DNA of 63,958 nucleotides, filler included, from Deltaproteobacteria bacterium (GCA_030698575.1; 6 parts of 6 records of this genome joined end to end with filler, not necessarily neighbours in it); one strand, 5' to 3'; shown: positions 6,834 to 52,624, counted from the whole stretch's first letter. The notes: generated from the letters alone by a model not told the origin. Numbers and translations: made by a program.

Positions 6834-6904
6834 CTCAGGTTTTAGCCTGCGCGCGGCGGGGCGAATGGCCCCGGACCTCGCGCAAGCAGAGGAAGGAGAA
6901 GGCG

Positions 6905-11182: not shown

Positions 11183-11282
11183 NNNNNNNNNNNNNNNNNN
11201 NNNNNNNNNNNNNNNNNNNNNNNNNNTTAATTAATTAANNNNNNNNNNNNNNNNNNNNNNNNNNNNNNNNNNNNNNNNNNNN
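11183..11282. other. artificial contig spacer
   Basis: N run with central TTAATTAATTAA. Confidence 0.98.
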
Positions 11283-33012: not shown

Positions 33013-33161
33013 GCCGGCAACGCCTTGAGCTGGGCGACCCGCTGATACAGCGCGTCGAGCTCAACCCGGCAGACGGCGCAGGTCGTGATGTGCTGCCGCG
33101 CCCATACCGATGCTTCTCCGGCGCGCAGCGCTCCCAGATCATCCATCGTACAGTGCATCAT
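33013..33161 (-). CDS. ZAS-type anti-sigma factor (3' truncated)
   Basis: H...HITTCAVC (HxxxCxxC), coupled to ECF sigma stop. Confidence 0.75.
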
Positions 33162-33694: not shown

Positions 33695-33742
33695 CTGTCC
33701 GAAAGGTAAGATGCGATGGTAACCCGGAGGGTCGCACCAAAC

Positions 33743-33820
33743 GGGGAATGGGGAGTGGGGAATGGGACCTCATGGTGTGGACTGATCGTACGATCGTACC
33801 ACTCCCCATTCCCCATTCCC
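33743..33820. repeat. inverted heptamer arrays (GGGGAAT / ATTCCCC) forming a hairpin
   Basis: three GGGGA(A/G)T units at 33743-33766, three complementary units at 33799-33820, central GATCGTACGATC palindrome. Confidence 0.75.
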
Positions 33821-33869
33821 TAAGTAATTACCCAGTAGGAAGTTGAATGGCATCGCGATATCTTGCAGC

Positions 33870-34976: not shown

Positions 34977-34977
34977 C

Positions 34978-37377: not shown

Positions 37378-37445
37378 AAGTGCTTGAAACTAATCGGCCT
37401 TGCCGCGCCTTGTCAGGCTCCATACCTTTGCGCGCGACCACCCGC

Positions 37446-39563
37446 ATGGCCACAAAATCCCAGCAGCTCCGTCAGAGTTTCCTCCTTTCGGGGGCCGGCG
37501 CCGCGTTGCTGCTCGTCGGGCTGGTCGCCTGGCTCACCAGCAACCGGATCGGCCACGTCCTCGAGCAGCAGGCCCACGGCCGCGGCCGGGACGTGGCGGT
37601 GCGCGTCGCCGCCATCGTCACGCACTACCTGAACGAGCGGCGCCGCGAGATCGTGTCCCTCGCCAACATGCCCCAGCTGATCGACGCGGTGCGCCGGGCG
37701 GCCGCCGACGTCGATGCCCGCGGCCTCGACCGCCTGGACATTCCCACCCTCGAGCGGTCGTTCAGCGGCACGCGGCAGCTGGGGGGACGCGCCGACGCGC
37801 CGCTGGCCGGCTACCTCCGCGCCTACGTCACGGTGTCGGACTTCGCCGAGATCATCGTGACGGAGCGCCGCGGGCTGAACGTGCTGGCCTCGAGCCGGCC
37901 GTCGGACTTCGTGCAGCGGGACGAGGAGTGGTGGCAACGCAGCATGAGCGACGGCCTGTACGAGGGCCAGGCGCGCTACGACACCGCGGCGGGGGCGGCG
38001 GCCCTCGAATTCGACGTCGCCATCCGCGCGCCCGGCCAGGAGCGGCCCATCGGCGTGTTCCGGGCGGTGTTCGCGCTCGCCCGCCTCACCGCGCTGCTCG
38101 ATGCGGAGACGCTGAGCGGCAATGCCTACCTCGAAGTGGTCGACGGCAACGGTACCCTGCTCGTGTCGCGCGACCCGGCGCTGCTGCTGCTCTCGCTCCC
38201 CGAGCGCGAGCAGTTTCCGCTCACCGGCGAGGCCACCAGCGTGCGCACGCGGACCGCGCGCGGTGAAGAGCTGGTCATTTCCGTTCCGGCGAACCAGGGC
38301 GAGTGGCGCGTGCTCTATCGGGAGCCGACCGCCACCGCCTTCGCGGCGGCACGCGCCACGCAGCGCAGCGTCTGGCTGGGCGCGCTGCTGGTCGGCGCGG
38401 TGGCCGTCGGGGCGCTGTTCTGGCTGTCGCGGCGCCTGGGACGGCTGGTGACCGAGCCGGTGCGGGCGGCGGGCGCGATCGCCAGCCGTGTGGCGGGGGG
38501 CGATCTGTCCGTCACGGTGTCCACGCATCGAGCGGAAGCCAGTGAAGTCGCCGACCTGCTGTCGTCGATCCATTCGATGGTGGTGGCGCTGCGGCGGCTG
38601 GTGGGGGCGATCCGCACCGCGGCGGACGAGGCCGCGGCCATGGCCTCGGAGATCTCGGCGTCCACCGAGGAGATGAGCGCGTCGACCGAGGAGATGTCGG
38701 CGACCGCGCAGGACGTGTCGCGGCGCGCGGCCGAGCAGGCGCAGCTGGTGCGCGCGGCGGCCGACGATGCGGCACGCATTCTCCAGATCGCCGCGACCCT
38801 CGCGCAGGGCGCCGAGGAGGCCGCGCGGCGGAACGCCGATCTGTCCGCGCTCGCGCGAAAGCACAAGGACGTGCTCGATCAGAGCACCGCGCAGCTCGCC
38901 AAGCTGTCGGACGAGGTCGCCAAGGGCGCCGAGGAAGCCGAGGCGCTCGCCCAGGCGTCCTCGCGGATCCAGACGTTCGTGGTCCAGACCAAGGCGGTGG
39001 CGACGCAGACGAACATGCTGGCGCTGAACGCGGCCATCGAGGCGGCGCGCGCCGGGCCGCAGGGGCGGGGCTTTGCGGTCGTCGCCGACGAGGTCCGCAA
39101 GCTCGCCTCCGTCGCCGCCGCGGCTGCCGGCGAAACGTCCGACACGGTGCGCGGCGTGCTGGCGCGCGTCCAGGCGACGCGCGACCGGCTGGTGCGCCTC
39201 GCCGCAGGAGGCGCCGCGGTCCGCGAAGCGGCCCACGCGGCGGCCCAGGGTCTGGCACGCGTGGCGAGCGAAGCCGACGCCAACGACGCCTGGACGCGGG
39301 AAATCGCGCGCTCGGCGAGCGAGATGCGCGCTTTGGTGGAGGAAATCGCGAACCGGCTGGGCTCGGTAGCGGGACAGACCGATACACTGCTCGCGTCCGC
39401 CGAGGAGCTTGCCGCGTCAGGCGAGGAGCAGACGGCGTCGACGCAGGAGATCGCGTCGTCGGCGAACCAGCTGGCGGAGGCCGCCGATCGCCTCACCGGC
39501 GCCGTGAAGACGTTCCGGCTGCTGGCGGACGAGCGCCCCGACGTCCGCGAAGCGGCCGATTGA
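37446..39563 (+). CDS. methyl-accepting chemotaxis protein (Cache-HAMP-MA)
   Basis: two TM segments, [36 protein letters not shown]. Confidence 0.93.
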
Positions 39564-39624
39564 CCTGAGCGCCAAGGCGCGAAGGATCTCCTTCGCTCGG
39601 GCTTTGCCCTCGCTCAGGATGACA
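39564..39624. repeat. REP-like doublet
   Basis: CCTGAGCGCCAAGGCGCGAAGGATCT followed by inverted CCTTCGC...CGCTCAGGATGACA. Confidence 0.7.
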
Positions 39625-39784
39625 TGCTCGTGCTTCGCTTTATGGAAAAGAAAAAGAAGGATGAAGGCGGCAAGAGAATGATCATGCCCTAGGTACACCT
39701 GATCGAAGGCCATAATCCTACCTGGGAAGATTTGGCCAAAACTCTCTCTTTCCCCTCCCCTCTTTGCTAAAAGCGAGCGCCGAT

Positions 39785-39820
39785 TGTCATCCTGAGCGCC
39801 GAAGGCGCGAAGGACCTGCT
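39785..39820. repeat. REP-like element
   Basis: TGTCATCCTGAGCGCCGAAGGCGCGAAGGACCTGCT, same family as 39564-39624. Confidence 0.7.
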
Positions 39821-39826
39821 TCTGAA

Positions 39827-39934
39827 CGGCGCGCGCTGCGGAGCAAGCTGCTGTTGTACCTGTCCGCCGTGGGCGGCCTGGCGGCGAGCGAGAACACGGA
39901 GCTTGCCGCGCAGTTCCGGCTGCCGCGGATGGGC
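39827..39934 (+). pseudogene. internal fragment of hypothetical gene X
   Basis: reads RRALRSKLLLYLSAVGGLAASENTELAAQFRLPRMG with host-like codons, fused directly to the 3' trailer that follows the X C-terminal fragments. Confidence 0.55.
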
Positions 39935-40000
39935 CTCACTCTCCCCAAGCCTACGCTAACGAGGCGCGGTGGGTGGATGGTCACCTGCCGCGCCTCTTGT
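39935..40000 (+). repeat. X trailer / hairpin T, copy 1
   Basis: CTCACTCTCCCCAAGCCTACGCTAAC + GAGGCGCGGTGGGTG-gatggt-CACCTGCCGCGCCTC-TTGT. Confidence 0.9.
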
Positions 40001-40001
40001 G

Positions 40002-40316
40002 CTATTTAGCACGTCCCAGAGCCTTAACGAGCGCTTCGTGAAGTTTCGGCACGGATTCAACTGCTGTCGTCCAAACCACGTCATTGTCCGTCGCCCAATA
40101 GTGATGCGCAATCCGGTCGCGCATTCGGACCATTGGTGACCACTCGATTTCCGGGAGGTCATCCTCAATAGACGGATCCGCTTCCAGTGCTGATTTGGCA
40201 GCTTCACCAATCACCACAATTTGGTAGAGGATGGCATCGCGAAGGGTCTGATCGCTATCGAAGGCTTTGCGACCGCGGTCGCATAGGTCTGAATCATCTG
40301 GGCGGCCGTTAGACAA
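40002..40316 (-). CDS. HepT/DUF86 RNase toxin (N-terminus short, possibly deleted)
   Basis: VIGEAAK, RMRDRIAHHY (Rx4HxY), D.DVVW. Confidence 0.85.
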   Translation of the reverse strand: MSNGRPDDSDLCDRGRKAFDSDQTLRDAILYQIVVIGEAAKSALEADPSIEDDLPEIEWSPMVRMRDRIAHHYWATDNDVVWTTAVESVPKLHEALVKALGRAK

Positions 40317-40602
40317 GCATCGACTCGCGCATAGCCGTCGATCTGATCGGCTCTCTGAGGCCGTTTATCGTGACGACGTCGACTGGATGACCGAGTAGTT
40401 CCTCGAGCCGCAGTTCCAATCGCGCCAAGTCCAGCAGTGATCTACCAGGCTTCAGCGAGACGAGGAAGTCTATATCGCTGCGCTCGTCTTCCTCCCCTCG
40501 GGCGACAGAGCCAAACACACGTATGTCCACAGCGCCGCTGGCGAGCGCGGTGCTTCGGATTGCTTCTCTCAGCTCCTTGAGTCGATCAAGCAACCGCATC
40601 AT
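40309..40602 (-). CDS. MNT minimal nucleotidyltransferase antitoxin
   Basis: VFGSVARGE...SDIDFLV (GSx10DxD), LEELLG.PVDVV; overlaps toxin start. Confidence 0.9.
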   Translation of the reverse strand: MMRLLDRLKELREAIRSTALASGAVDIRVFGSVARGEEDERSDIDFLVSLKPGRSLLDLARLELRLEELLGHPVDVVTINGLREPIRSTAMRESMLV

Positions 40603-40695
40603 CGTACAAAAGTACTAGTATTTTGCTGCGTGACAAATGGTTCTCATGTCGAAGAGCGAACCAGAGTCGGGTAGTGAGACGCCCAGGGCCGCGTA

Positions 40696-40760
40696 GTCCT
40701 CACCCCCTGGTGATGGAGCGAGGCGCGGTGGGTGGATGGTTCGCCTGCCGCGCCTCTTGT
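40696..40760 (+). repeat. hairpin T, copy 2, preceded by GTCCTCACCCCCTG from the X 3' end
   Basis: GAGGCGCGGTGGGTGGATGGTTCGCCTGCCGCGCCTCTTGT at 40720-40760. Confidence 0.85.
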
Positions 40761-40800
40761 TGTTGTTGGTGGGGGTGCAGGTTGTCGGATCGGTGATCCG

Positions 40801-40845
40801 TGCGCTGAAGCGCCGGCTCGGCGAGAGCGCGCGTCCTGAAGGACG
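40801..40845 (+). repeat. repeat B, copy 1
   Basis: TGCGCTGAAGCGCCGGCTCGGCGAGAGCG identical to 44771-44799. Confidence 0.9.
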
Positions 40846-40947
40846 CAGCAAAACCGACGCTGTTGCCTCGGATCATCCCGCCGCGGCTGTGATCTCCGGC
40901 TGGATCAAACAGCACACGACAACGGCGCAGCAGGGGAATCTGTTTGC

Positions 40948-41703
40948 CTAGGCTTCGGCGGCCAGCGCAACCGGGTAGTTGCTCCATTCGCGACCTTCGA
41001 GCAGTCGCCCGCCCGATCGAGCCGTCCGGCCGCCCCATTGCTTCCAGAAAAATGCCACGCCCTTACGGACGCACAGATCTCTGAGCTCGCGAGCCCAGGC
41101 CGGATCGCAGGCGCGGTGGGTCGCGCCGCTCTCGCCGCCACCGATAACCCAGTCGATTCCGTCGAGGTCGAGACCATCGAGCGAGCCGAGGAGCGGCTCC
41201 GCGCTGATAAAACGGACGGCAGCCGGGATGAGGCGCAGCGCGTCTGCCCGCGAGGCGACATTCATGTCTTCGATGGACGTCCCAATCCAGATGTTCTCGT
41301 TCCACGTCAGACGATCGGCCAAGCGCAGGGCGCGCTCAGGCCGTTTGGTGAGCACCTGGAACTGATGCCAGTGTGCACGGTTCATGACGTCGAACACGCG
41401 TTGAATCAGATCGAGCGAGAAATGCGCGTGAAACACGTCGGACATGCTGTTGACGAACACTCGGCGCGGTTCCGGCCAGCGCAGGGGTTGATCGAGGCGC
41501 GCAGGCCAGAAGCGCGGAGCGAACGGGTCGGCGCGGTTGGCTGCCGTGTTCTTGAGTGGAGTGCCACGTAGATAGACGTCGCGGACTTTCGTGTGCGCCA
41601 GCGACAGTGCGTAGCAATTGTCGCAGCCGCGCGAAATCTTTGTGCACCCCGTCATGGGATTCCACGTCGCGTCCGTCCACTGAATGCCGGTTTTCAGTCC
41701 CAT
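40948..41703 (-). CDS. DUF5131 / phage Gp37-Gp68 family three-Cys protein
   Basis: IQWTDATWNP.TGCTKIS.GCDNCYA, FVNSMSD.FH, LTKRP, WVIGGGESG, FFWKQWGG. Confidence 0.93.
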   Translation of the reverse strand: MGLKTGIQWTDATWNPMTGCTKISRGCDNCYALSLAHTKVRDVYLRGTPLKNTAANRADPFAPRFWPARLDQPLRWPEPRRVFVNSMSDVFHAHFSLDLIQRVFDVMNRAHWHQFQVLTKRPERALRLADRLTWNENIWIGTSIEDMNVASRADALRLIPAAVRFISAEPLLGSLDGLDLDGIDWVIGGGESGATHRACDPAWARELRDLCVRKGVAFFWKQWGGRTARSGGRLLEGREWSNYPVALAAEA

Positions 41704-41888
41704 GGGACGCTCGAAGTTGCGAGTGGACGGCTACCGAATAGACACCGAAGATACGCCCAGAATACAATGGTCTACAAGCGTAGCTGTGTACAGCAGAACC
41801 TGCGCTTCGTTGGGCTGCAAACTCAACGAATGAGGGAACAGCAAGGTCGACGACGGATTTAGGCCACGCGTGCCGGCCGGCGCGAGCA

Positions 41889-42235
41889 CCCTTCGCTGCG
41901 CTCAGGGCAGGTCGTGGGTGCGAGCGCCGATCTGCGGGCCGTGATGGCCGAGATCTCGGAGCAGGTGAAGGTGCTGGACGGGATCGTGCGCTATCGGTTC
42001 GGGGACAATGCCGAGCTGATGGGGGCGTGGGCCAGCGCGCACAGTGTGGTGGGGGCGTTCCGGTCTCAGGCGTCCTCACCCCCTGACCCCCTCTCCGTTC
42101 CGGAGAGGGGGAACGAAGGGCCGGGCATCGTGAAGCCGGCGGCGTAGGCTCACTCTCCCCAAGCCTACGCTAACGAGGCGCGGTGGGTGGAAGGTCATCC
42201 ATCGCGCCTTTCCTTTCCGAAGCAGATCCTTCGCT
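41889..42235 (+). repeat. long module copy: REP-like + X C-terminal fragment (41914-42147) + trailer/hairpin T copy 3
   Basis: near-identical to 44825-45175; encodes GASADLRAVMAEISEQVKVLDGIVRYRFGDNAELMGAWASA...KPAA*. Confidence 0.92.
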
Positions 42236-42535
42236 CCGCGCGCGTTCCACAAGAAGCCTAAAGGTGAGTTTGCTGGTCCGTGAGGAGGCGGTCGTGCTGA
42301 TCCCTGCGACTGGCGACTCAGGCGCGGCTGTCGCGCCTTCGATCCGGCATGTGGCTATCGGCGTGCACCATGAAGCAGAGGATTGCAGTGGAATTGCCGC
42401 AAATCCACCCCTTCGTGCCGCAAAAACACCCTAACGCTGTCACGTGGCGGCCCCATCTTCGCAGCTGGAGCTGCGAGGTCCGGGTCGTTTAACACCTGTA
42501 GTGGGCCTTCACTTCCGGGAACGGACGAGATCCGC

Positions 42536-44749
42536 ATGCTGCCAGATGGCTTGCCCCACCTACGAATTTCAACGGCTCTGGCACGCAGCGAAGCTGTCGT
42601 CGTGCGGGGGGGTGGCGATACGTACACCCGTGAAGACGTTGCCGCTCATAGTCGAGCCCTGCGAGCCGCCTTCGGGCGATCCCTCCAGAACTTTGAGGGA
42701 AAGTTAGACGCTGACCTGGCTGCTGACCTGATAGTGCAGGTGACCACAAGCCCCGGTAGATCCGCAGCAAAAGAGCGCCAACACCTGAAGAATCTAGGCT
42801 TTGAAATCGTTTCGCTGAGTTCCAGCGAATCCAATGTTGCCGTCGCAAGGATCAGCCGAGACCTCATCCCAAGGCTTGCTCAGAAGCTCGATCGATATGC
42901 CGACTCTAGTCGGCATATCGGCAAGACCAACTTCGCCGCTATCGAATCATTAACGCCCGTCTCCGTAGAACGAAAGATTGAACCAGGTCTTGCGGATGCG
43001 GCGAGAGAACAGGCTGTAAACTGCCTAGTAACGCTGTATGCATCACTTCCTACAGAGATGAAGGCGACCGTCGCAACCAGAATAGCTGGAGGTCTTCGAG
43101 AAAGAGGGAAGAGGGAAGTTGCTACCTACTCGTACGCGAACGGAATAGTGGGTATCGCCGCCACTCTAACGAGAGCTGAGATGACGGAAATAGGCGAACA
43201 ATACATGTTTGTTCGATCATTCGAAAACAACACTGAGGTTGTCTCAGAAGCAGCGATTCAGGCTGATCCCGTTCCTGCAATAATACAAATTGAGCACGTG
43301 CAGTGCGAAATGCCGGCTGTTGTCGTTGATTCGGGCATCAATGGCAACTGCTCGTTGCTCGCGGGATTGGTGCTGAGAACTATTAATGAATTGCCTCAAG
43401 GGACCGCGGGCCCGCACGCAGCTCACGGGACGTTTATAGCCAGCCGGGTGATCTACGGCGACGACATTACCACTGTGCTGAACCACCGAGCGCTCCCTTG
43501 GTGCCCGGTCATCGATGTTCAAGTCACGGGCATGGATAATGTTGGAAATCGGGTCTTTCACACGCCAGCAAAACTTGGGGAGATACTTCAAAGGGTCGTT
43601 CCCACGATAGCGAGTCAATCCAAGGTCGTAAATCTCTCTCTAGGGACGAATCCCATTGCAGAGGGACAATACTCTACGCTCGCACGACTGATAGACTTTC
43701 TGTCTCGCGAGCACAAGGTACTGTTCATCATCTCTGCCGGAAACATTCAGAATCCGACCGCGAATCCTCCAGCACATTACCTGGACTCAAATAGCAGAAT
43801 CCTTTCTCCCAGCGAGGCCCTACTGGCTCTCACCGTGGGCTCGATCGCACGTTTTTGTCAAGAGAATTGTGTAGCCCGCGAACGGGAGATCAGCCCTTTT
43901 TCGCGGAGGGGCCCGGGAGCAGACCGAGCATTAAAGCCTGAACTGGCCATGCATGGCGGCAACGTGGCTTTCGATGGGATGGGTTGGACCACGACCCCGA
44001 TCGTCGCTGCGTACGGCCTCGATCGGGACGGTGCGCATCTCTCTTACAACACTGGGACAAGCTTCTCGGCGCCCCTGGTCGCTCAGTTTGCAGTTAGGTT
44101 GTTCGACGCATACCGAGGTGCCAGCCCAAACCTGGTTCGCGGTCTCTTGTGTCATTTTGCCGAGCCGGTACGTACTCCGTCTCCCGGTGCTCCTGTGGCG
44201 GCTCACGATTTTTGTGGCTTCGGAGAGCCGCGAATCCAGAATGCGCTCTTTGCCACCAACCACTCGTCGGCATACCTGTTTGAGGGGGAGATCGAGAAGG
44301 ATACCTATTTGTACATCCCCTTCCATGTTCCTCAAGAGCTGGTGAATGACCCAGCGTCTCGACTTAGGATTCGCGGTACCGTGGTATTCGACCCCCCAGT
44401 GAGTGCGGATGACTCTGTCAATTATTCCCTGTGCCGCGTAGCGGCGCGGCTGAGGAAACGCGTTCAAGGTGGTCTTCGAGAACAGGCCATCGGTGGTGAT
44501 GAAGAGGATGCGCTTTACCCTTGGAATCCTCTCATCCACTTTGAACACTCCTTTAGGCGCGGTTACGCCTCGGGTGAATGGGAACTTCGCCTAAGACTAA
44601 TGACCCGTGGCGACTTGGAGGCGGGCTTTCGACAGAGTGTTGCGGCGGTCATCGAGATCGTTGATGAAAGCGGCAGTGTTGATGTTCGAAACGCAATTCA
44701 GAACGAGGCGCCCGTTTTTGCACCGGTCCAACTTAGATTCGCGGCGTAA
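42536..44749 (+). CDS. S8 family serine protease, IetS/Y4bN-like
   Basis: VVDSG (D), HGTFIAS (H), SAGN, KPEL..HGGN, GTSFSAP (S); lower GC than flanks. Confidence 0.88.
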   Translation: MLPDGLPHLRISTALARSEAVVVRGGGDTYTREDVAAHSRALRAAFGRSLQNFEGKLDADLAADLIVQVTTSPGRSAAKERQHLKNLGFEIVSLSSSESNVAVARISRDLIPRLAQKLDRYADSSRHIGKTNFAAIESLTPVSVERKIEPGLADAAREQAVNCLVTLYASLPTEMKATVATRIAGGLRERGKREVATYSYANGIVGIAATLTRAEMTEIGEQYMFVRSFENNTEVVSEAAIQADPVPAIIQIEHVQCEMPAVVVDSGINGNCSLLAGLVLRTINELPQGTAGPHAAHGTFIASRVIYGDDITTVLNHRALPWCPVIDVQVTGMDNVGNRVFHTPAKLGEILQRVVPTIASQSKVVNLSLGTNPIAEGQYSTLARLIDFLSREHKVLFIISAGNIQNPTANPPAHYLDSNSRILSPSEALLALTVGSIARFCQENCVAREREISPFSRRGPGADRALKPELAMHGGNVAFDGMGWTTTPIVAAYGLDRDGAHLSYNTGTSFSAPLVAQFAVRLFDAYRGASPNLVRGLLCHFAEPVRTPSPGAPVAAHDFCGFGEPRIQNALFATNHSSAYLFEGEIEKDTYLYIPFHVPQELVNDPASRLRIRGTVVFDPPVSADDSVNYSLCRVAARLRKRVQGGLREQAIGGDEEDALYPWNPLIHFEHSFRRGYASGEWELRLRLMTRGDLEAGFRQSVAAVIEIVDESGSVDVRNAIQNEAPVFAPVQLRFAA

Positions 44750-44770
44750 CACCAGAGAAGAGTAAAAAAA

Positions 44771-44815
44771 TGCGCTGAAGCGCCGGCTCGGCGAGAGCGG
44801 GAGCCCTGAAGGGCT
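44771..44815 (+). repeat. repeat B, copy 2
   Basis: 29-nt identity with 40801-40829. Confidence 0.9.
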
Positions 44816-44824
44816 CACCCGCGT

Positions 44825-45175
44825 CCCTTCGCTACGCTCAGGGCAGGCTCTTGAGGACGCGCGTAGTGGCCGAGCCGGCCCTTTAGGGCACGGGTGCGAG
44901 CGCCGATCTGCGGGCCGTGATGGCCGAGATCTCCGAGCAGGTGAAGGTGCTGGACGGGATCGTGCGGTATCGGTTCAGTGACAATGCCGAGCTGATGGGC
45001 GCGTGGGCCAGCGCGCACAGTGTGGTGGGGCCGTTAGGTCCTCACCCCCTGACGAAGGGCCGGGCATCGTGAAGCCGGCGGCGTAGGCTCACTCTCCCCA
45101 AGCCTACGCTAACGAGGCGCGGTGGGTGGATGGTCATCCATCGCGCCTTCCCCGTTCCCAGAGCAGATCCTTCGC
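44825..45175 (+). repeat. long module copy: REP-like + degenerate X C-terminal fragment (44892-45086) + trailer/hairpin T copy 4
   Basis: aligns with 41889-42235 with an insertion after the REP and deletions near the X 3' end. Confidence 0.92.
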
Positions 45176-45299
45176 GCAGCGAGCGCCGGCCGAAGGCCGC
45201 GCGCAGCTGAACCCGCGACCCCCTGACGCGGAGCCGGCGCGCAGCGCCGGCGGAGCGGACGCGGTGGGGCTGGGATGGGTGGGGGCGTCAGCCCCATGC

Positions 45300-45480
45300 G
45301 ACTCGTTAGGGAACCGAGTTACGACACCGAGTAGCAATCACGCGAGGTCCTGGGCGTCGGTGTCGTAACAGCGGACCCGAAGATCAACCGAGTGTCGTGA
45401 GAAACACCCCTATTGGTAGATAGGGGTCGAGGGTCCCACTTCCGCTCGTAGCGCGTCCGGGTCACCGGGCGCACCCTCGG
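45300..45480 (+). ncRNA. candidate IS110 bridge/seek RNA (structured 5' non-coding end)
   Basis: 13-bp stem GTTACGACACCGA/TCGGTGTCGTAAC (45318-45369); ACCCCTAT/ATAGGGGT hairpin inside an internal-loop structure. Confidence 0.45.
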
Positions 45481-45507
45481 AGCTCACCTTTAGCCCCAGG
45501 GGGCTCC

Positions 45508-46758
45508 ATGATCTCCTTCCCCAAGCGTGAGCGCGCCCACCATGCCGCGGCCTGCGTCGGCGTCGATGCCGGCAAGTTCTCCCACACGTTGGTCGTCCGT
45601 CCGCAGCACCAGCCTGATTCCAAGCCGTTCAGCTTTCCGACCACCCGCAGCGGGTTTGACACGGCGGTCGCCTTCATCCGGCAACAAGTCCCGGGCGCCG
45701 CGGCTACGACGATCCTCGTCGGCATCGAGTTCGCCGGGAACTACGGCTTCACCTTCGCCCACTACCTCGCCCAGCTCGGCTTCCCGATCGTGAGCGTGCT
45801 CCCCGCGCATACGAAGCGCTGGAAGGACGTCGCGCACAACCAGCCCCTGAAGACCGACGCGAAAGACGCCGGCACCATCACCGATCTCTTGGCCCAGGGG
45901 CACTTCGTCACCTTCCCGTTCCTGTCGCCCGCGTACGCCGATCTGCGCTACCTGGTCACGGCACGGGAGCGACTCTCGCTGCTCCGCCGCGGGGCGATCA
46001 CGCAGCTCCGCACGCTGATCCAGGTGGTCTTCCCCGAGTTCGAGGCCCTCTTTCCGCTCATCGCCAAGAAGACGCCGTTCACCGTGCTCCGGACCTTCCC
46101 GACGCCCCAGGACCTGCTCGACGCCACGAGGACCAAATTGCTGCGCGTCCTGAAGACCGCCAGCCGCGGCCACCTCGGCGCCGAGACCTACGACAAACTC
46201 GTCGCGGCGGCCCGGGCCACCCTCGGGCTCCCCGGCGCCCAAGCCCGCCTCCGACAAGAGATCCTGCTCACCCTCGAGCGGATCGCGTTGTTCGAGCGGC
46301 AGATCAAGGCCCTCGAGACCGAGCTCGTGGAAGCCCTCCAGGCCGTCCCGGAGACGCCGTATCTCCTGAGCATCCCCAAGGTCGCGCCCGTGACCGCCGC
46401 TGTCTTCCTCGGCTCGATCGGCGACCCGCGCGCCTATGAGGCGGGGGAGCAGATCCTTCGGGTCGCTGGCCTCTCGCTGATCGAGCGCTCGAGCGGCGTG
46501 CTCCGGGGCACGAAGCGCATCTCCAAACGCGGGCGGCCGCTGCTGCGCCAGGCCGCCTACATGTTCGCGGTCCGCAGCATCACGAAGGGCAGCCTCTTCC
46601 GCGCCGAGTACGACGCCCTCTGCCGGCGCAACGGGGGCGTCAAAATGAAAGCCGTGGTCGCCGTGATGCGCTCCGGGCTGCGGCTGCTGTACAGCATCGC
46701 CCGCGATCGGCGGCTGTTCACCATCGCGCCGCCGGCCGTGCGGCGGGTGGCGGCATGA
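45508..46758 (+). CDS. IS110 family recombinase/transposase
   Basis: GVDAGK, GIEFAG, KTDAKDA (DEDD RuvC-like) and C-terminal RSSG...RISKRG..LLR. Confidence 0.93.
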   Translation: MISFPKRERAHHAAACVGVDAGKFSHTLVVRPQHQPDSKPFSFPTTRSGFDTAVAFIRQQVPGAAATTILVGIEFAGNYGFTFAHYLAQLGFPIVSVLPAHTKRWKDVAHNQPLKTDAKDAGTITDLLAQGHFVTFPFLSPAYADLRYLVTARERLSLLRRGAITQLRTLIQVVFPEFEALFPLIAKKTPFTVLRTFPTPQDLLDATRTKLLRVLKTASRGHLGAETYDKLVAAARATLGLPGAQARLRQEILLTLERIALFERQIKALETELVEALQAVPETPYLLSIPKVAPVTAAVFLGSIGDPRAYEAGEQILRVAGLSLIERSSGVLRGTKRISKRGRPLLRQAAYMFAVRSITKGSLFRAEYDALCRRNGGVKMKAVVAVMRSGLRLLYSIARDRRLFTIAPPAVRRVAA

Positions 46759-47006
46759 TCTGAGCTGACGGCAGTTCGGCTGGCCGGCCGGGACGACGGA
46801 GCCCGTTGTGAGTCGAGGCAGCCTCTGGGCTGGCCTCCCATGTGCCAGTGGCTCCCCCGGCCGAGCGTCCGCTTGAGTCTCCGATAACGGGGTGTCGAGG
46901 GTCGCGCTCCGCGAGGAACGCCACGCCTCCGAGTTGGGCTAGGATCGAGCTACGCGGCGCGCGCCGGTCGCTGCTCTTTGAAAACTGTTGGAATCAATTG
47001 AGCCTT

Positions 47007-47135
47007 GGGCCCGGCGCGGATCCGCGCTGTGAGCTGCGGCGTGCTCACGCATGGCCGCCGGCAAAACACTCGATCGCGACCGGGCCCAGCGGGCGGCTGT
47101 TGCGCGCTCCTGAGTTAGGGCCCGGCGCGGATCCG
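47007..47135. repeat. 18-bp direct repeat GGGCCCGGCGCGGATCCG
   Basis: copies at 47007-47024 and 47118-47135. Confidence 0.85.
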
Positions 47136-47230
47136 ATAACCCATTGGACGGGCGCGTCGCGTGCCGCGTCCGACATGACACGTGATCGCGCCGACGCTAC
47201 ATGGGGCCCACCGCATAACGATTCTGCGTC

Positions 47231-47665
47231 CTAGGAGTGTGGAGAACCCGCAGAAGAAATCCGGGATGCGTCGAGACGTCTCCTAGGCAATTGGTGCAGG
47301 AGACCATACGTCAGAATCGCAATGATGAAAGGTGCGACTGCCGTCCTGCTGGTTACTAAGTCCCGCGCTGGCTGACCGGCCATGAACGCACCGAGGAACA
47401 CGACCATTGAGATGGCTCTCAGGAGAGCCGGATGCGAGCCCATCTGAGTACGTGATATCAGCATCATACTCAGGACTTGGGCGACGCATGCCAAGAGTGC
47501 CAGAGGCAGGCTGAGGATCAGTAAGAACACCAACCCGGAAGCTGAAGGTATTTCAGCACCCGTGGTAAAGTGATTTACCAGCGTGATTCCCCCGAGCCAA
47601 ATGACGCCCAGGGCGGCAAGCGCCAGGAACAGATTAAACGCGAGTTGCTTCAGCACTCCACGCAT
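47231..47665 (-). CDS. four-TM membrane protein, putative Rhs immunity protein
   Basis: GGAGG RBS before ATG 47665; hydrophobic helices; directly downstream of Rhs C-terminal fragment. Confidence 0.6.
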   Translation of the reverse strand: MRGVLKQLAFNLFLALAALGVIWLGGITLVNHFTTGAEIPSASGLVFLLILSLPLALLACVAQVLSMMLISRTQMGSHPALLRAISMVVFLGAFMAGQPARDLVTSRTAVAPFIIAILTYGLLHQLPRRRLDASRISSAGSPHS

Positions 47666-47688
47666 TTGCGTTCCTCCCTGGGAAGCAC

Positions 47689-48228
47689 CTACGGATATTT
47701 CAAAGGTTTCCGAAAATCGAACAAGTCGATCGGAGACGATCCACCGTGTGGCGTGCCGATCAGTTGCCACTGACCACCGCGCATAACGTACGCCGCGTGA
47801 GCCGGGAACCTCGTTATCGATCCTGACATCGTGTAGCTTCCATTGGCGTCGGGAGTGAACGTCAACGAGCCGTTGATGTCAGGATTCGGTACGACGCCGG
47901 CGATCTTGGCAGAGTTTGTGAAATTGAAGTCAACACTGATCCCGCCGCCCGCGGCCGCCCTGGCGGTCATGTGGTTACCATCTGATGGTGCGTAACATCC
48001 TCCGCCGGCCGCAAAACATGACTCATTTGGAATGAAGAAGCTCGCGGAGGGCTGGGATGGCATCAAATACATCTGCGCACGCGACTGATCTGGCGACGCA
48101 TTAGCGTCAAATGTCCGGCCATCCCCCTTCCAGATGAGAGTGGTTTTACCTTCAATGAAGAGGTCGACACAGATAGCGCCCTCACGTACCTTCTTCTCGC
48201 ATAACCCGAACGGATCGGTAAAGGCTAC
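47689..48228 (-). pseudogene. orphan Rhs C-terminal toxin fragment
   Basis: frame opens after a TGA with VAFTDPFGLCEKK (DPxGL core end) and continues in frame into the 47689-48072 ORF; no start codon. Confidence 0.8.
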
Positions 48229-48434
48229 TCACAGCACGCATACGCTGCCTCTAAAGACGCGCACCCCTAACTGATCGGGGCTTTAGCGGCAGACTGCTTG
48301 GTTCGCTCGCATTTCTCGTCGTCGCTGCAAGCTTCCGGCAGAGGCGCATTCAAGAACCGGATTCCATCATCGATAGTCCTTGGCGAGCGGTACAGCACTG
48401 GCTTACGCTGCTCACGATGCCTCCACAAATCGGA

Positions 48435-49121
48435 TTATGATGTGACCTCTTCAGGCGGATAGAGCACGCGCTTTGCGATGCCGTGAAGGATTGGGTCTTG
48501 AATGCCATGAAAACTGAAGGCGCGGGAGCGCGCCTTCAGAAAGAGGAATACTTCTCGCCACGGCCACTGCTCGACCGCCAAAGCGTTGCGCGTTCTATGG
48601 CGCGGTGCCAGTCTCACCCGCTCCTGCTCTTTCCGGTACTGAATACCGACATCAAAACCGTCCCACCGGGGTGCCAACTCGACCGCAAGGTCAATGTCAT
48701 TCACGCGCTCGGCATCGGTCAGGTAGCTGCCGAAAAGCACGACACGCTTGACGCGATAGGCGAACTCTTCGGATTGGTTGACCTGTTCGACACGCGCCAT
48801 GAATTCGCGGAGCTTGCGCTCCGCCGTGGCGCGCCGGAGCGGGGCCGCAGCGGATGCTTGCGCGAAGCCGTTGCCTTCGTCCGTAAGCTCATACCACGGG
48901 CCAACCGCATGGTCCCCTGGGCCAATGACCACACGGGGTTCACGTAGCTGAGTCGGGTCACGGTAGAGCGTTCCGACTAGCCCTTTCGCGAGCAGCACCT
49001 CCAGCAATCCGGCGTCCCGAAAGTACCCGGCGACCACCGTCGCGCCCATGAACCTGAGCAGCAGGTCGCGGACCTTCATCACCGGCACGCCGGCGATCTT
49101 GTCGCGTGGATCAATGCGCAC
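48435..49121 (-). CDS. Pol-beta superfamily nucleotidyltransferase domain protein
   Basis: VVLFGSYL.....NDIDLAV motif plus about 110-aa N-terminal extension. Confidence 0.8.
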   Translation of the reverse strand: MRIDPRDKIAGVPVMKVRDLLLRFMGATVVAGYFRDAGLLEVLLAKGLVGTLYRDPTQLREPRVVIGPGDHAVGPWYELTDEGNGFAQASAAAPLRRATAERKLREFMARVEQVNQSEEFAYRVKRVVLFGSYLTDAERVNDIDLAVELAPRWDGFDVGIQYRKEQERVRLAPRHRTRNALAVEQWPWREVFLFLKARSRAFSFHGIQDPILHGIAKRVLYPPEEVTS

Positions 49122-49170
49122 GCTACGCTGCGCCCAGGTAGGTCAACTCGCGCATAGCTTAATACCGAGA

Positions 49171-49722
49171 CTACGAGCGAAGCACCTGCAAGAACGCGTG
49201 CAACGCTCTCGGGAGGAGCCTGATCTGCTCATCGACAAGCCGCGGCAGCAGGATTGGCCGGGGCTCAAGGTGATCCTGCACGAGGAACCCTGACGTGAAG
49301 AAGAATTTGGAGGGCCGACTCCCATCTGACACGCCGAAGCGCAGTCGGGGTCTCTCGGGGTTCACGCGAAACTGAACGTTGGCGTGGCCTAGCGCCGGGA
49401 GTCGAAGCGTGTACTCCAGGCGCATGTGCCTTGGCCCGATCACGCTGCCATGGTGGAAATCCCGGATGCGAAGTTGGTGCACCAGACGCCAGCGCGGGGC
49501 CATCCGGACAATGAGGCGGTCCCATTCCGCGAGGCCGACAGTCAACTCGCCCCGGTTCGCGGCTTCGCGCATCAGTTCGACGGGAGCGCGGAGGAAGTAG
49601 ACAGCGGCCATCCAGTGCCGAAACGCAGCTGTGGCGTTGGTGGCCGATCTCGCTTCGGTGTCGAAGAACGAGGCCCGTTCGAGATGTTCAGCGATGCCGC
49701 GGACCGCGTGGTGCTGTCTCAC
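49171..49722 (-). CDS. hypothetical protein, possible HEPN-like
   Basis: helical N-terminal half with LRIRDFHH (Rx4H); adjacent to NTase. Confidence 0.5.
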   Translation of the reverse strand: MRQHHAVRGIAEHLERASFFDTEARSATNATAAFRHWMAAVYFLRAPVELMREAANRGELTVGLAEWDRLIVRMAPRWRLVHQLRIRDFHHGSVIGPRHMRLEYTLRLPALGHANVQFRVNPERPRLRFGVSDGSRPSKFFFTSGFLVQDHLEPRPILLPRLVDEQIRLLPRALHAFLQVLRS

Positions 49723-49746
49723 GGAGAATCTCTTCGGTTGCTAGGG

Positions 49747-50754
49747 TTATCCGCCGAACAGGCGAACGCCGGACGGGGAGAGCCATTGCAGCGTGATCTT
49801 GTCGGCTCTCGGCATCTCTGCACTCGTTCCGACGAGCCACTGCACGACGGTCTCGGGCGGTCGCCGAGGTCCTCGGTGTGGGTTCCGCATGCGGAAATCT
49901 TTCAGTCTGCCGTAGGCTCCCAGTCGCACGTCTCCGTCATGGCAGCATTGCTCATAGAGACGTCCGCAATCGCATCCGCAAAACTCGCCGGCCCGATGTT
50001 CGATAACCCGCTCGTGAGCCGTGTGGAGAATCTGCCGTCCCGGCCATCGGCCTAGGCGCTTCAGGTGTAGGTGGCGCGCAAGCCAAACCGATTGCAGATC
50101 AAGAAAAACCACCGCGGACTGGCCACGTCGCCACGTTCCGTCGCTTACTTCGAACGCGCAGACGCTTCCATCTGGGTAATTGGTGTGACGCTCCCCGACC
50201 CATATACCAGGTGACCACCACGCCCATGACGCTGGCCAGCGGTCATATGCTCGAGGCCAAGCTGTCAGGAGCAATGCGCTGTCTGGCAAGCCCCTAATGG
50301 GCTGAATCCGGTTCAAGAGGATGACCATGTCGGGCGTGGCGTGCACCCTGACCCCCGGGTACGCCACCTCCACGCCCGACAAATCCCCGGTCAAGCACTC
50401 GGCTTCGAACTCGCCGACGACCGATGTGGAGGCACTGGCCTCCCCTTGTCGTGGGGCGGCCGATCCTTCGGCCGCCCGTGCCCTTCCGGTGGACCCTTGC
50501 CATGATCTGGCTGAGGATCCTCCCGCTCGCGTTCGTCCATCTGCCAAATCCTCCTCTATGCCCGGATCGACGGGGGGAGGAGTCGCGCCGGGCTCGACGA
50601 CGCCTCCCGAAAACACAAATGGCTGACCACCGGCATCGAGCACCGCGCCCACCGCCCCCAAGCGACTGATGCCCACCGAAAGCGTGTCATGCACTTGGCG
50701 CTCCGCTCTGTTGCGTTCGCGAGCTTGCTCGGGACCTATTGCCGGCCGTGTCAT
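49747..50754 (-). CDS. prokaryotic E2-like domain plus SEC-C-like zinc motif protein
   Basis: WVGERHTNYPDGSVCAF (E2-like H..N..G..C), TW and CGCDCGRLYEQCC. Confidence 0.65.
   Translation of the reverse strand: MTRPAIGPEQARERNRAERQVHDTLSVGISRLGAVGAVLDAGGQPFVFSGGVVEPGATPPPVDPGIEEDLADGRTRAGGSSARSWQGSTGRARAAEGSAAPRQGEASASTSVVGEFEAECLTGDLSGVEVAYPGVRVHATPDMVILLNRIQPIRGLPDSALLLTAWPRAYDRWPASWAWWSPGIWVGERHTNYPDGSVCAFEVSDGTWRRGQSAVVFLDLQSVWLARHLHLKRLGRWPGRQILHTAHERVIEHRAGEFCGCDCGRLYEQCCHDGDVRLGAYGRLKDFRMRNPHRGPRRPPETVVQWLVGTSAEMPRADKITLQWLSPSGVRLFGG
50391..50540 (-). CDS. nested 49-aa Pro/charge-rich peptide in an alternate frame
   Basis: GAGGAGG 9 nt before ATG; MDEREREDPQPDHGKGPPEGHGRPKDRPPHDKGRPVPPHRSSASSKPSA*. 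Confidence 0.45.
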   Translation of the reverse strand: MDEREREDPQPDHGKGPPEGHGRPKDRPPHDKGRPVPPHRSSASSKPSA

Positions 50755-50807
50755 GAAGGTAAGTCGGAGGGTCGTCTAGCATCAAGCGGAGCGCACGCGT
50801 TAAACCG

Positions 50808-50842
50808 TCAAGTCACACGCACGTTACGTGCGTGTGACTTGA
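50808..50842. promoter_or_regulatory. perfect 17-1-17 palindrome, putative operator/divergent promoter
   Basis: TCAAGTCACACGCACGT-t-ACGTGCGTGTGACTTGA. Confidence 0.75.
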
Positions 50843-50949
50843 TAAACCGTACCGCATCTGCGAGTTTAACCGTGTATGGCACGTCTGCGGAGTCTAGAAC
50901 ACCAAGGCATCAGCAAACGCGTAAAGGAAGCGTTTGGGAGACGTCTACG

Positions 50950-51049
50950 NNNNNNNNNNNNNNNNNNNNNNNNNNNNNNNNNNNNNNNNNNNNTTAATTA
51001 ATTAANNNNNNNNNNNNNNNNNNNNNNNNNNNNNNNNNNNNNNNNNNNN
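50950..51049. other. artificial contig spacer
   Basis: N run with central TTAATTAATTAA. Confidence 0.98.
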
Positions 51050-51054
51050 CCTCC

Positions 51055-51110
51055 GGGCCGCCTCGCAATGACATGCGCACCCGTGAGGGGCCGCCTCGCA
51101 ATGACATGCG
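51055..51110. repeat. 23-bp direct repeat with REP-like CTCGCAATGAC end
   Basis: GGGCCGCCTCGCAATGACATGCG at 51055 and 51088. Confidence 0.8.
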
Positions 51111-51190
51111 GGCGCTCGTGCGGAGCGGGGTGCATTGCGCTAGGATATCGGTTTCTACCCGGCTGCTGCCGGGCGAAGCGGAGGCAGGAA

Positions 51191-52207
51191 ATGGCCACGC
51201 AGACGGCGATCGAGAACAGGAAAGACGACGGGCAGGCGTTCGTGCCCGATCGGTTCCGCATCGAAGACCGCGCAGCGGCCGATCGCCTGTCGGAGGAGAT
51301 CCGCGAGCTCGCGCGCGAGAAGAACGCCATCATCCTGGCGCACAACTACCAGCTCCCCGAAGTGCAGGACGTTGCGCACTACGTGGGAGACTCGCTGGGC
51401 CTGGCTAAGGAAGCGCAGCAGACGAAGCACGAGCGGATTGTTTTCTGCGGCGTTCACTTCATGGCCGAGTCGGCCAAGGTGCTGAACCCCGACAAGAAGG
51501 TGCTGCTGCCGAATCTTTCCGCCGGCTGCGCGCTGGCCGACTCGATCAGCGCCGAGTCGCTGCAGGACTGGAAGGACCGCTATCCGGGCTACGCGGTCGT
51601 GACCTACATCAACTCCAGCGCCGAGGTGAAGGCGCTCTCGGACATCTGCTGCACATCGGCCAACGCCGTCTCGGTGGCGCGGAGCCTTCCCGGCGACAAG
51701 ATCCTCTTCACGCCCGACCGGCATCTCGGCAGCTGGGTGGCGAAGCAGGTTCCCGGAAAGCAGTTCGCCATCTATGACGGCGTCTGCCCCACCCACGACG
51801 TCCTGCGCGACGCATCGGTGAAGCTCGTCAAGGCCGGCGCGCCCGACTCGATTGTCATCGCCCACCCCGAGTGCCGCGAAGACGTCGTTGCCATGGCCGA
51901 CGAAGTCTGCTCGACGACCGGCATGATCGACGCGGTGAAACGCCACCCGGAGGCCCGGACCTACATCGTGGCCACCGAGTGGGCGATGATCCATCGCCTC
52001 AAGAAGGAGTTTCCCGACAAGGAGTTCGTCTCGGCCGACGGCTGCATCGGCTGCCGCCTGCACTGCCCCTACATGAAGATGAACGATCTCCCCACCGTGA
52101 AACGCGCCCTCGAGGAGGACGTCTTCGAGGTCGAGGTTCCCGCCGACATCGCCGCCGGCGCCCGCCGCGCCCTCGAGCGCATGATGGCCGTTCCGCGCGA
52201 CAACTGA
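51191..52207 (+). CDS. nadA: quinolinate synthase
   Basis: ILAHNYQ, GDSL.L, CGVHFMAE, AGC.LA, YINSSA, AHPEC, CPYMK. Confidence 0.96.
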   Translation: MATQTAIENRKDDGQAFVPDRFRIEDRAAADRLSEEIRELAREKNAIILAHNYQLPEVQDVAHYVGDSLGLAKEAQQTKHERIVFCGVHFMAESAKVLNPDKKVLLPNLSAGCALADSISAESLQDWKDRYPGYAVVTYINSSAEVKALSDICCTSANAVSVARSLPGDKILFTPDRHLGSWVAKQVPGKQFAIYDGVCPTHDVLRDASVKLVKAGAPDSIVIAHPECREDVVAMADEVCSTTGMIDAVKRHPEARTYIVATEWAMIHRLKKEFPDKEFVSADGCIGCRLHCPYMKMNDLPTVKRALEEDVFEVEVPADIAAGARRALERMMAVPRDN

Positions 52208-52297
52208 GGCCGGGTCCGCTTCCGTTCATCCAACAAGTCAATAAGTCAAGCCTGACCCCGGTTTCCCTTTCGGGTCCGTTGGAGTAGAGTCCGGCCC

Positions 52298-52597
52298 ATG
52301 GGACTCACACGCGAAGCCATCGAGAAAGTTGTGCTTGAGCACGTCGAGGCGGAGAACGCCCGCGACATGGCGCGCGTCATGCGCACCTACGCCGAGGGCG
52401 CCGTCTTCGAGGATGTTCCGCAGGGAAAGAACTTCGAGGGAAAGGCGGCCATCGCCGATTCTTACCAGGAGCGCTTCGTCGCCGTCGACCTCGGCATCCT
52501 TCCCGATCTCACCTCGCCCTCCGGCCGGCTCTGGCTGGCTATCACTCGCCCGGGCGTGCTCCTCCGAATGCTCCGCGCGCGACTCGGCGGACGCTGA
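52298..52597 (+). pseudogene. SnoaL/ester cyclase-like gene with probable internal in-frame deletion
   Basis: N-terminal HVEAENARD...TY...G..AI..Y joined directly to a C-terminal LGILPD...RL tail; only 99 aa. Confidence 0.55.
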
Positions 52598-52624
52598 CCT
52601 TTCCCTTCGATTAAAACCGGATGG

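Follow-up and report, generated by a model that had tools for sequence, protein, structure and literature searches.

Integrons are, to our knowledge, the sole well-understood system in which single-gene cassettes are stored and shuffled, and recent work has revealed many anti-phage systems among these cassettes. Their attC sites are imperfect palindromes with R'' (RYYYAAC) and R' (GTTRRRY) boxes, a spacer, and extrahelical bases; a cluster of attC sites without an integrase is termed CALIN. In the present study, we analyzed a 63,958-nt stretch of DNA assigned to a Deltaproteobacteria bacterium (GCA_030698575.1), hereafter the window, in which positions 39564–50949, downstream of a methyl-accepting chemotaxis protein (MCP) gene, hold unrelated cargo genes separated by copies of one gene end that finishes in a hairpin, T. 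As far as we found, this T-delimited cassette array is apparently undescribed, being akin to integron-like arrays and to hotspot islands marked by repeats of a gene end: the literature (supplements not covered) yielded no account of arrays of this kind, whether for Gemmatimonadota or for other groups. Integrons have been reported in Gemmatimonadota, in a paper that also describes CALINs (PMC8618304), integron cassettes are reported to encode defence systems (bioRxiv 10.1101/2024.07.02.601686), and in tycheposons repeated integration at one site leaves partial-tRNA repeats and degenerate elements (10.1101/2020.12.28.424599).

The array lies on one (33013–50949) of six contigs joined in the window by N/TTAATTAATTAA spacers at 11183, 32913, 50950, 56096, and 61358. 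The contig end at 50949, noted in a first-pass annotation of the same DNA, was correct, and the N spacer between joined contigs follows it. The nearest relatives of the contig were metagenome-assembled genomes (MAGs) of Gemmatimonadales. For comparison, a set of 61 Gemmatimonadales genomes was used (the unpublished genome G019 is counted in the MCP and T tallies), and metagenomes were scanned with an exact 20-nt core of T. At least 120 stretches were obtained, and 80 of them were taken as loci; they were chosen for holding T, and fractions among them are not equal to prevalence. Loci are designated below by L, genomes by G, and clusters of cargo genes by c.

The first-pass annotation had described a recurring module of X fragment, trailer, and hairpin T, X being one hypothetical gene. 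The module does recur, with two corrections: what had been described as X fragment, trailer, and T is no more than the 3' end of one multicopy gene together with its 3' untranslated region (UTR) hairpins, and T without X also bounds cassettes. In the window, T occurs four times in one orientation, at 39960, 40719, 42174, and 45113 (22 nt, 95–100% identity; the earlier coordinates were 1 nt off). The 26-nt trailer and the 5' half of T form a 49-nt repeat at 39935, 42149, and 45088 (98–100% identity). The three X fragments reported earlier (39827–39934, 41914–42147, and 44892–45035) were found again, and a fourth, a 30-nt remnant of the X tail at 40686–40716 before T(ii), had been overlooked. 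Aligned to eight full-length X proteins, the three fragments span residues ~67–103, 161–235, and 162–~210. A separate repeat, B, is present at 40801 and 44771 as described (89% identity), its length being 47 nt rather than 29 nt, with an inverted copy at 44847–44893. Two long module copies flank a gene for an S8 protease, 41916–42059 matching 44892–45035 (96%) and 42113–42210 matching 45052–45149 (99%). These repeats are not a chance occurrence, since the T type was present in only 11 of the 61 relatives, with at most two copies per genome, and a reversed control pattern gave no matches.

Along the plus strand, the modules are arranged as follows. Between the MCP gene and the first X fragment, repeat finding and the sequence itself revealed elements resembling repetitive extragenic palindromes (REPs) at 39564–39826, one of which abuts X codon ~66. 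X fragment i (39827–39934, residues ~67–103 by alignment to full-length X; 79–89% nucleotide identity to the X genes of L001–L005) is joined by an internal deletion to the trailer, which constitutes the 3' half of a first hairpin, H1, and is followed by T(i) (39935–39997; the 49-nt repeat and a 16-bp hairpin, with −40 kcal/mol for the 86-nt stretch). The X-tail remnant and T(ii) occupy 40686–40756, as found by repeat finding, folding, and a consensus scan in which T(ii) was terminator-like. Repeat B at 40797–40847 is one arm of a REP doublet, and in other loci it likewise stands ~35–45 nt after T. Module iii (41889–42210), delimited by repeats, alignment, and fold, consists of a REP, X codons 161–235, the trailer hairpin, and T(iii); its coding tail contains a palindromic REP at 42072–42120, and the 3' arm of T(iii) is replaced by a REP arm. 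Module iv (44771–45149), delimited in the same way, consists of repeat B, a REP, inverted B, X codons 162–~210 plus tail, the trailer hairpin, and T(iv); its junction recurs in L029, L030, and 12 metagenome loci. In both T(iii) and T(iv) the 5' arm is retained and pairs with a REP arm instead.

The 77-aa open reading frame (ORF) at 41914–42147 is the C-terminal third of a protein family, X, of ~230–238 aa. Among 217 search candidates, 168 matched X at E ≤ 0.01, many of them on ~1-kb contigs; at E ≤ 1e-3, the family had 2587 cluster representatives (50% identity). X loci in species genomes were labeled Gemmatimonad-something in 34 of 39 cases, and X was found almost only in Gemmatimonadales, with 1–6 matches per genome. 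Searches in Pfam and NCBIfam assigned X to no family, and none of the 168 X proteins has a Pfam domain. The AlphaFold model was all-helical (pLDDT 93). Against the PDB it gave no significant match, the best E being 0.18, with a TM score of 0.54 to the ligand-binding helical bundle of the McpS chemoreceptor, and the ESM Atlas returned only unnamed Gemmatimonadota clusters. Judged from the model and the absence of a significant PDB match, X does not look like a recombinase. The neighbors of 24 X loci had no conserved partner gene in common. In L008 and L021, X lies between the same gene clusters, c9 and c10, in opposite orientation, which suggests an inversion or an independent insertion of the X unit. 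Neither X nor T was found in viral contigs.

T stands directly behind the X stop codon in six of the eight T matches in five whole MAGs, and most X paralogues are followed by T likewise. The trailer folds into H1, which spans the X stop codon. T itself is a 16–17-bp hairpin with G.U pairs and then a U-rich tail; the 86-nt stretches around it folded with −40 to −44 kcal/mol (z −3.0 to −5.4), and T-rich tails were present behind T in most of 103 contexts. The consensus terminator scan flagged one of the four window copies, T(ii). Judged from these sequence features, namely a GC-rich hairpin and a U-rich tract just past a stop codon, T appears to be terminator-like, of the intrinsic (rho-independent) type. 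The outer stem GGCGCGG/CCGCGCC is retained behind X paralogues of ~50–55% protein identity; the inner stem and the loop vary among the paralogues with base pairing preserved. A cargo gene of cluster c4 that also precedes T was ruled out as an X homologue (hhalign probability 0.7%). An Rfam search of 37000–53000 returned no match, and a search for tRNA genes found none.

The cassette architecture is real and recurrent in many related soil bacteria. In the long-read MAG G002, a full X–T unit is followed 3.2 kb downstream by a co-oriented ~310-bp repeat of the X 3' part (91–95% identity) and, a further 3.8 kb downstream, by a third, more diverged copy; the cargo between the X copies comprises ADH, an HNH-DEAD helicase, and a trypsin-like protease. 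In 23 of the 80 metagenome loci, two to four T copies (three mismatches allowed) were found, at spacings of 347–5118 nt, and one T copy alone was reversed among the arrays of these 23 loci. X fragments start at residue 161–165 in 12 of the 80 loci. Alignment of 17 copies demonstrated a discrete module with flanks diverging immediately outside it: repeat B and inverted B (an imperfect palindrome of ~100 nt), X from codon 161, trailer, and T, with a further REP before X and a palindromic REP inside the X coding tail as optional parts. Cassettes bear X fragments with T on both sides in the window, L030, L064, L129, L193, and others, and an intact X heads the array in L176, L153, L138, and L064.

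The same cassettes were found in different combinations. DUF5131 with c5 stands behind T in L129, L193, and L034; c11, with or without c74, stands behind T in L030, L178, and L173 and behind c5 in L193. A toxin–antitoxin (TA) pair of the Gp49/helix-turn-helix (HTH) type (c7/c8) lies between two T copies in L153/L163 and before the module starting at X codon 161 (the X161 module) in L161, L029, and L173, and c4 lies between T copies in L136, L145, L170, and L177 and elsewhere in L148/L176. With an NYN gene and a module on the left, the right cargo was DUF5131 in L129, L156, and L193, and c11 in L030. Altogether, 148 cargo ORFs carry 112 Pfam families, among them Gp49-like toxin/HTH, HNH-helicase, patatin, Kelch/Big_1, AbiV, AbiEii-like NTase (nucleotidyltransferase), ThiF-DUF6791 with DUF6527, DUF6119, an M78-HTH regulator, AAA_15/21 ATPases, methylases, and radical SAM proteins. 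Pfam and PADLOC searches of the window and related loci bore out the view that defence and TA genes are abundant in the cargo. Of 60 ORFs of at least 100 aa located between T copies, 42 point the same way as T; of the three window cassettes, two run against it. The GC content downstream of X–T was not significantly different from that upstream (63.3 vs. 65.6%, n = 16, p = 0.10).

Copies of T without X arise by deletion. The end of the L153 TA cassette, which consists of T only, derives from the X161-module version (seen in L161 and L173) by an internal deletion that begins within inverted B and finishes where the trailer ends; in X fragment i of the window, a comparable deletion took away everything between codon ~103 and the stop codon. 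Variants of the X tail and of the trailer re-assort against left and right cargo, which indicates crossovers on both sides of the trailer. X cores were 90–96% identical within arrays in five of eight non-redundant pairs, and the between-array median was 80%.

REP elements mark the places where X is truncated (codons ~59, ~66, and 161). The T loop carries a REP of the CCTTCGCGCC...GCGCTCAGGRCGAC type, always at one position, in 9 of 103 distinct T contexts (L007:10698-10763, L154, L125, L139, L131, L185, L137, L153, and L193), and T(iii) and T(iv) of the window look like such loop-REP copies minus the distal arm. Some junctions cut T at the loop, as in the c4 cassette of L133/L145 and in one of L164. 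The palindromic REP CCTCACCCCC...GGAGAGGGGG in the X coding tail, at 42072–42120 in the window, encodes ...PPDPLSVPERGN... and occurs both ways round in many loci; its insertion inside the coding tail accounts for the varying C-termini of X proteins. Like REPs and bacterial interspersed mosaic elements (BIMEs), repeat B with its inverted copy, a CCTTCGC...GCTCAGGG element, and the CCTCACCCCC...GGAGAGGGGG palindrome are short and palindromic and are found at many loci in both orientations. T differs from these in its copy number of at most two per genome and in its position, nearly always behind X or at a cassette end. The low copy number ruled out that T is itself a REP element.

The array, which had been proposed to be a hotspot of gain and loss, belongs to the region between MCP and serA, and this region does vary across relatives. 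MCP was found in 44 of the 61 relatives, and the downstream region was compared in 20 of these; together with L030 and the window, this gave 22 MCP loci, in 16 of which serA was reached (it was not reached in five loci and the window). MCP and serA are convergent in the relatives. The gap between them was 0–27 bp in six loci, 2.3–4.0 kb with two conserved genes in eight, 9.5 kb in L030, and 12.9 kb in L106, and the cargo was mixed, including, for example, cysteine synthase. In the six loci with gene ends 0–27 bp apart (L097, L099, L102, L103, L107, and L109), no space is left for a terminator. Comparison of the leuS–MCP locus among relatives, as the first-pass annotation had advised, revealed L030 (genome G006), which is syntenic with the window from leuS through MCP (78–80% nucleotide identity) and carries the same modules with different cargo. 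There, MCP is followed by an NYN gene, a module (repeat B, inverted B, REP, X from codon 161, and T), an SH3-DUF4041-T5orf172 gene with a 208-aa ORF, a second X fragment with T, and then Vsr, a UvrD-PD-(D/E)XK helicase-nuclease, and a C5 methylase before serA. T-type hairpins were present in 3 of the 22 MCP loci, the window, L030, and L101; in L101, T stands 7 nt behind the MCP stop codon without X. Since T/X modules are limited to these three loci, the MCP–serA hotspot exists independently of them. It resembles core defence hotspots in its conserved MCP/serA flanks with 0 bp to >12 kb of unrelated cargo between them and differs from these in the modules, an added layer in 3 of 22 loci.

The array is similar to integrons and CALINs in several respects: short cassettes are each closed by a similar hairpin repeat in one orientation, TA and anti-phage genes abound in the cargo, and the same cassettes stand in different orders in different genomes. 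It differs from them in that a protein gene supplies the repeat, namely its 3' UTR hairpin, usually with a fragment of that gene in front, in that no integrase lies beside T arrays, and in that several T-array cassettes carry their own leader motif. An integron integrase (TIGR02249) scored above the cut-off in 32 of the 61 relatives (the unpublished genomes G019 and G027, both below the cut-off, are included in the denominator) and in 0 of 14 control genomes; it was frequently located at a contig end. Within 12–20 kb of intI, no attC-like repeat arrays were found in the long contigs examined, apart from one attC-like candidate in L252, and none of 24 intI neighborhoods (12 long, 12 short) held X or T. 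The sole exception, found elsewhere, is contig G001:C3 (L065:5771-10888) of a long-read Gemmatimonadales MAG, in which intI (6550–7533) begins 80 nt after an X(59–217)–T unit, a 5'-truncated X with the T hairpin. It is a genuine integron, with six ~110-nt attC sites (GCCTAAC...GTTAGGC boxes) 366–487 nt apart between small ORFs and intI oriented like its cassettes; the contig ends within the array.

Against this canonical attC, T is quite unlike: its 16-bp stem is uninterrupted, without attC spacer, extrahelical bases, or R''/R' boxes. The earlier description of the layout as integron-like with a different repeat therefore holds. A crude scan of our own gave no attC candidates in the window contig, and a hidden Markov model (HMM) based on IntI matched none of the window ORFs of at least 80 aa, the contig stopping at 50949. 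Applied to 6346 ORFs of about 150 X/T loci and the window, the same HMM detected three distinct tyrosine recombinases, none of them inside arrays, and the only integron integrase among these ORFs was that of G001:C3. No recombinase family is among the 25 most frequent of the 112 cargo Pfam families. The claim that no recombinase other than IS110 is visible thus stands, and by the sequence features testable here, the array is not an integron or CALIN.

Two sequencing runs of one study contain the stretch (0.89 and 0.23 of sampled words). In the best-holding run, X1, the Logan contigs were broken at every repeat and no junction was bridged, so that the cassette order in the window contig is without independent confirmation; uncovered parts and small-sided joints at REP-like sequence were disregarded, as contigs of other organisms could yield these. 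In run X2, one low-depth 274-nt contig joins 39934 to 45088 via the 49-nt trailer+T repeat and skips three cassettes, and the run also holds pieces of all three. The joint may be a natural deletion variant lacking the three cassettes or an assembly-graph artefact and gives only a weak hint.

For the origin of the array, we favor homologous recombination between module copies, which would join and shuffle the cassettes, at a probability of about 0.5. The locus would then be a stack of expression-insulated cargo cassettes in the chromosomal hotspot between MCP and serA, each cassette ending in the X 3' end with H1 and the terminator-like T. An ancestral truncated module of about 330–400 nt (REP doublet, X codons 161–235, H1, and T) would have spread beside many different defence and TA genes, and its copies, as direct repeats, would supply portable homology for RecA-type recombination. 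Cassettes could be deleted, duplicated, re-ordered, and exchanged within and between genomes by three routes: unequal crossing-over between module copies; excision of a circle and its Campbell-type re-insertion at any X–T copy; and allelic replacement following DNA uptake. Later erosion would reduce modules to T alone by internal deletions, and REPs would invade the junctions and the T loop.

Several observations lead us to infer homologous recombination instead of a dedicated recombinase. The same left junction (X residue 161–165) recurs in 12 of 80 loci, in L029, in L030, and in two window copies, and X, trailer, and T remain one unit even behind X paralogues down to ~50% identity. The structure of G002 is the expected product of a single crossover of a circle. 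The finding of the same cassettes (DUF5131+c5, c11+c74, c7+c8, and c4) in different combinations points in the same direction, as do the re-assortment of variants on both sides of the trailer, the derivation of the T-only L153 copy from the X161 module by deletion, the lack of a recombinase between T copies, and the higher identity of X cores within arrays (90–96% in 5 of 8 pairs) than the between-array median of 80%. The X2 contig joining 39934 to 45088 is a weak hint to the same effect.

Other observations weigh against homologous recombination. T-only delimiters offer 36–49 nt of homology, which is short for RecA, and the X copies of the L176/L148 array, being 70–81% identical, are a poor substrate; copies so diverged suggest that modules arrive together with their cassettes. 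Unrelated genes (the c4 family; MCP in G008) have T 7–35 nt after their stop codons, a placement that module–module recombination alone does not produce. Some junctions fall at one point of the T loop (the c4 cassette; the REP in 9 of 103 contexts and two window copies), and the GGCGCGG/CCGCGCC stem, kept at ~50% X identity, points to a sequence-specific role. The presence of more than 100 different gene families beside modules is not accounted for by shuffling. Finally, the 274-nt X2 contig could be a de Bruijn graph artefact, the 49-nt repeat exceeding the assembly word.

T-only sites, diverged modules, loop junctions, the conserved stem, and the wide gene capture, left unexplained in this way, keep alive a possible, if doubtful, second reading: T, perhaps with H1, would be a structured recombination site for a recombinase encoded elsewhere, at which cassettes are cut and joined in one orientation, much as in an integron with another kind of site. 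This would accord with the single reversed T copy in the arrays of the 23 multi-T loci (of 80), with the co-orientation of 42 of 60 ORFs between T copies, and with cassettes bounded by T without X (c4; MCP then T in G008). The DUF5131 cassette begins at the same nucleotide after T in nine loci with differing upstream context. The stem conserved behind X paralogues of ~50% identity, the half-T junctions at the loop, and the strand specificity of a hairpin with G.U/G.T pairs are also in line with it, and relatives do possess integron integrases (32 of 61), one of which lies 80 nt after an X–T unit. However, no recombinase was found in or beside any array, and with the exception of G001:C3, intI and X or T were not neighbors (0 of 24). 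The continuous 16-bp stem has no attC features and is quite different from the real attC of a relative; the U-rich tail and the position after stop codons suit an ordinary intrinsic terminator, and the re-assortment on both sides of the trailer requires more than one crossover point.

A bolder form of the idea can be put forward only tentatively, namely that the X 3' UTR hairpins H1 and T are sites of an attC-independent cassette-capture system of Gemmatimonadota, with the recombinase acting in trans. The enzyme could conceivably be of the HUH/RAYT type, acting on the single-stranded hairpin loop, in which REP insertions and half-T junctions cluster, or possibly the helical protein X itself. 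If so, such a system would stock terminator-insulated defence cassettes alongside the true integrons of the same clade.

Islands and passive decay or artefact are less likely than a recombination site at T. It is improbable that the array is what remains of successive integrase-carrying islands inserted at the X 3' end, their integrases since lost. On that reading, every new insertion would leave a restored X end and displace the previous one inward, in the manner of tRNA-targeting islands and tycheposons. The array resembles these in that partial 3' copies of one gene separate cargo in a hotspot, sometimes with the intact copy first: direct repeats of the X 3' part flank the inserts, and intact X heads the array in L176, L153, L138, and L064. 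Repeated integration of tycheposons at one site is likewise reported to leave partial-tRNA repeats (10.1101/2020.12.28.424599). The differences are substantial. T-array inserts are very small, without an integrase in any; no tyrosine recombinase was found in any T-to-T insert of about 20 non-redundant arrays, and many inserts, at 0.35–1.5 kb, could never have accommodated such a gene. A protein gene present in multiple copies serves as the target, and the left end of the repeat is the REP-doublet junction at codon 161 and not an att or other shared core site; X and T, as stated above, were not found in viral contigs. That no mechanism is involved, the array being either the decayed remains of X paralogues and REPs in a variable region or a multicopy repeat wrongly assembled in this MAG contig, is hardly probable: the Logan contigs of the best run do break at all repeats with none bridging, REP elements abound at all junctions, and the GC content after X–T is just slightly below that before (63.3 vs. 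65.6%, p = 0.10), but independent assemblies (a long-read MAG and many metagenome contigs) share the architecture, identical module junctions stand beside different cargo and identical cargo beside different neighbors, and T, with a maximum of two copies in any of the 61 relatives, is too rare a repeat to collapse an assembly.

The cargo of the window was annotated with Pfam, PADLOC, and NCBIfam. The earlier calls of MCP, HepT, MNT, DUF5131, S8, and IS110 were each matched by Pfam, as was leuS upstream of MCP. The MCP gene (37380–39563, plus strand; MCPsignal, dCache_1, and HAMP) is the left flank of the variable locus. Cassette 1 (40002–40602, minus strand) consists of a HepT toxin (40002–40316; HepT-like) and an MNT antitoxin (40309–40602; NTP_transf_2), the latter also matching PADLOC PDC-S09. 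Cassette 2 is a DUF5131 gene (40948–41703, minus strand; E 2e-86; PADLOC candidate systems PDC-M41B/M30B), inverted in comparison with other loci, where its cluster, c3, follows T on the plus strand (nine loci). Cassette 3 (42383–44749, plus strand) encodes the S8 protease, of the IetS anti-phage type (Peptidase_S8; PADLOC IetS, E 2.5e-75); the NCBIfam IteS score was below the cut-off. The Iet system consists of two genes, IetS and its ATPase partner IetA; the cassette is without IetA and has no space for it.

A leader motif of ~45 nt with two GCCGCAAA...CCC half-sites and a terminal CCCTAAC lies ahead of the S8 gene (42372–42436, plus strand), whose true start is probably downstream of it. 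The motif occurs once in the whole window and 12 times in 11 array loci (the window, L030, L034, L138, L144, L152, L153, L154, L163, L178, and L193), before differing cargo genes. It may be a common promoter or operator of several cargo genes, and its recurrence suggests that these have their own promoters.

Downstream of module iv, a conserved 114-nt element with a 13-bp perfect inverted repeat (45286–45408, plus strand) was found, which also follows X/T in L018:10535-10648 and L171:10341-10454; identity across the three loci was 84–96%, and Rfam gave no match. In the window it stands just upstream of an IS110-family transposase gene (45508–46758, plus strand; DEDD_Tnp_IS110, E 1e-20; Transposase_20, E 5e-17), and L018 and L171 are without IS110. 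No homologue of this transposase was found in about 150 related loci; the sequence comparison marks it as a secondary insertion and not a general array component. The three ORFs that follow in 46842–48072 (46842–47234 on the plus strand, 47231–47770 and 47689–48072 on the minus strand) had no match in Pfam, PADLOC, or NCBIfam. On the minus strand, 48435–50754 holds an NTase (48435–49121), a 183-aa ORF (49171–49722), and a 335-aa ORF (49747–50754), with weak matches for the NTase only. The NTase call was thus upheld weakly (Pfam Polbeta/NTP_transf_2, E about 1e-3; PADLOC PDC-S09), and the labels Rhs-CT/immunity, HEPN-like, and E2-like found no support in any of the three databases. A homologue of the 183-aa ORF lies directly behind T and repeat B in L155.

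The array described here is an integron look-alike from an under-studied phylum of soil and groundwater, made from the 3' end of an ordinary multicopy gene and its predicted terminator. Should homologous recombination be enough, any repeated gene end can give rise to a defence “biobank”, and compact new defence genes of Gemmatimonadota could be sought simply by looking for the modules. Should the hairpin be the substrate of a dedicated recombinase, this would amount to a new class of cassette system.

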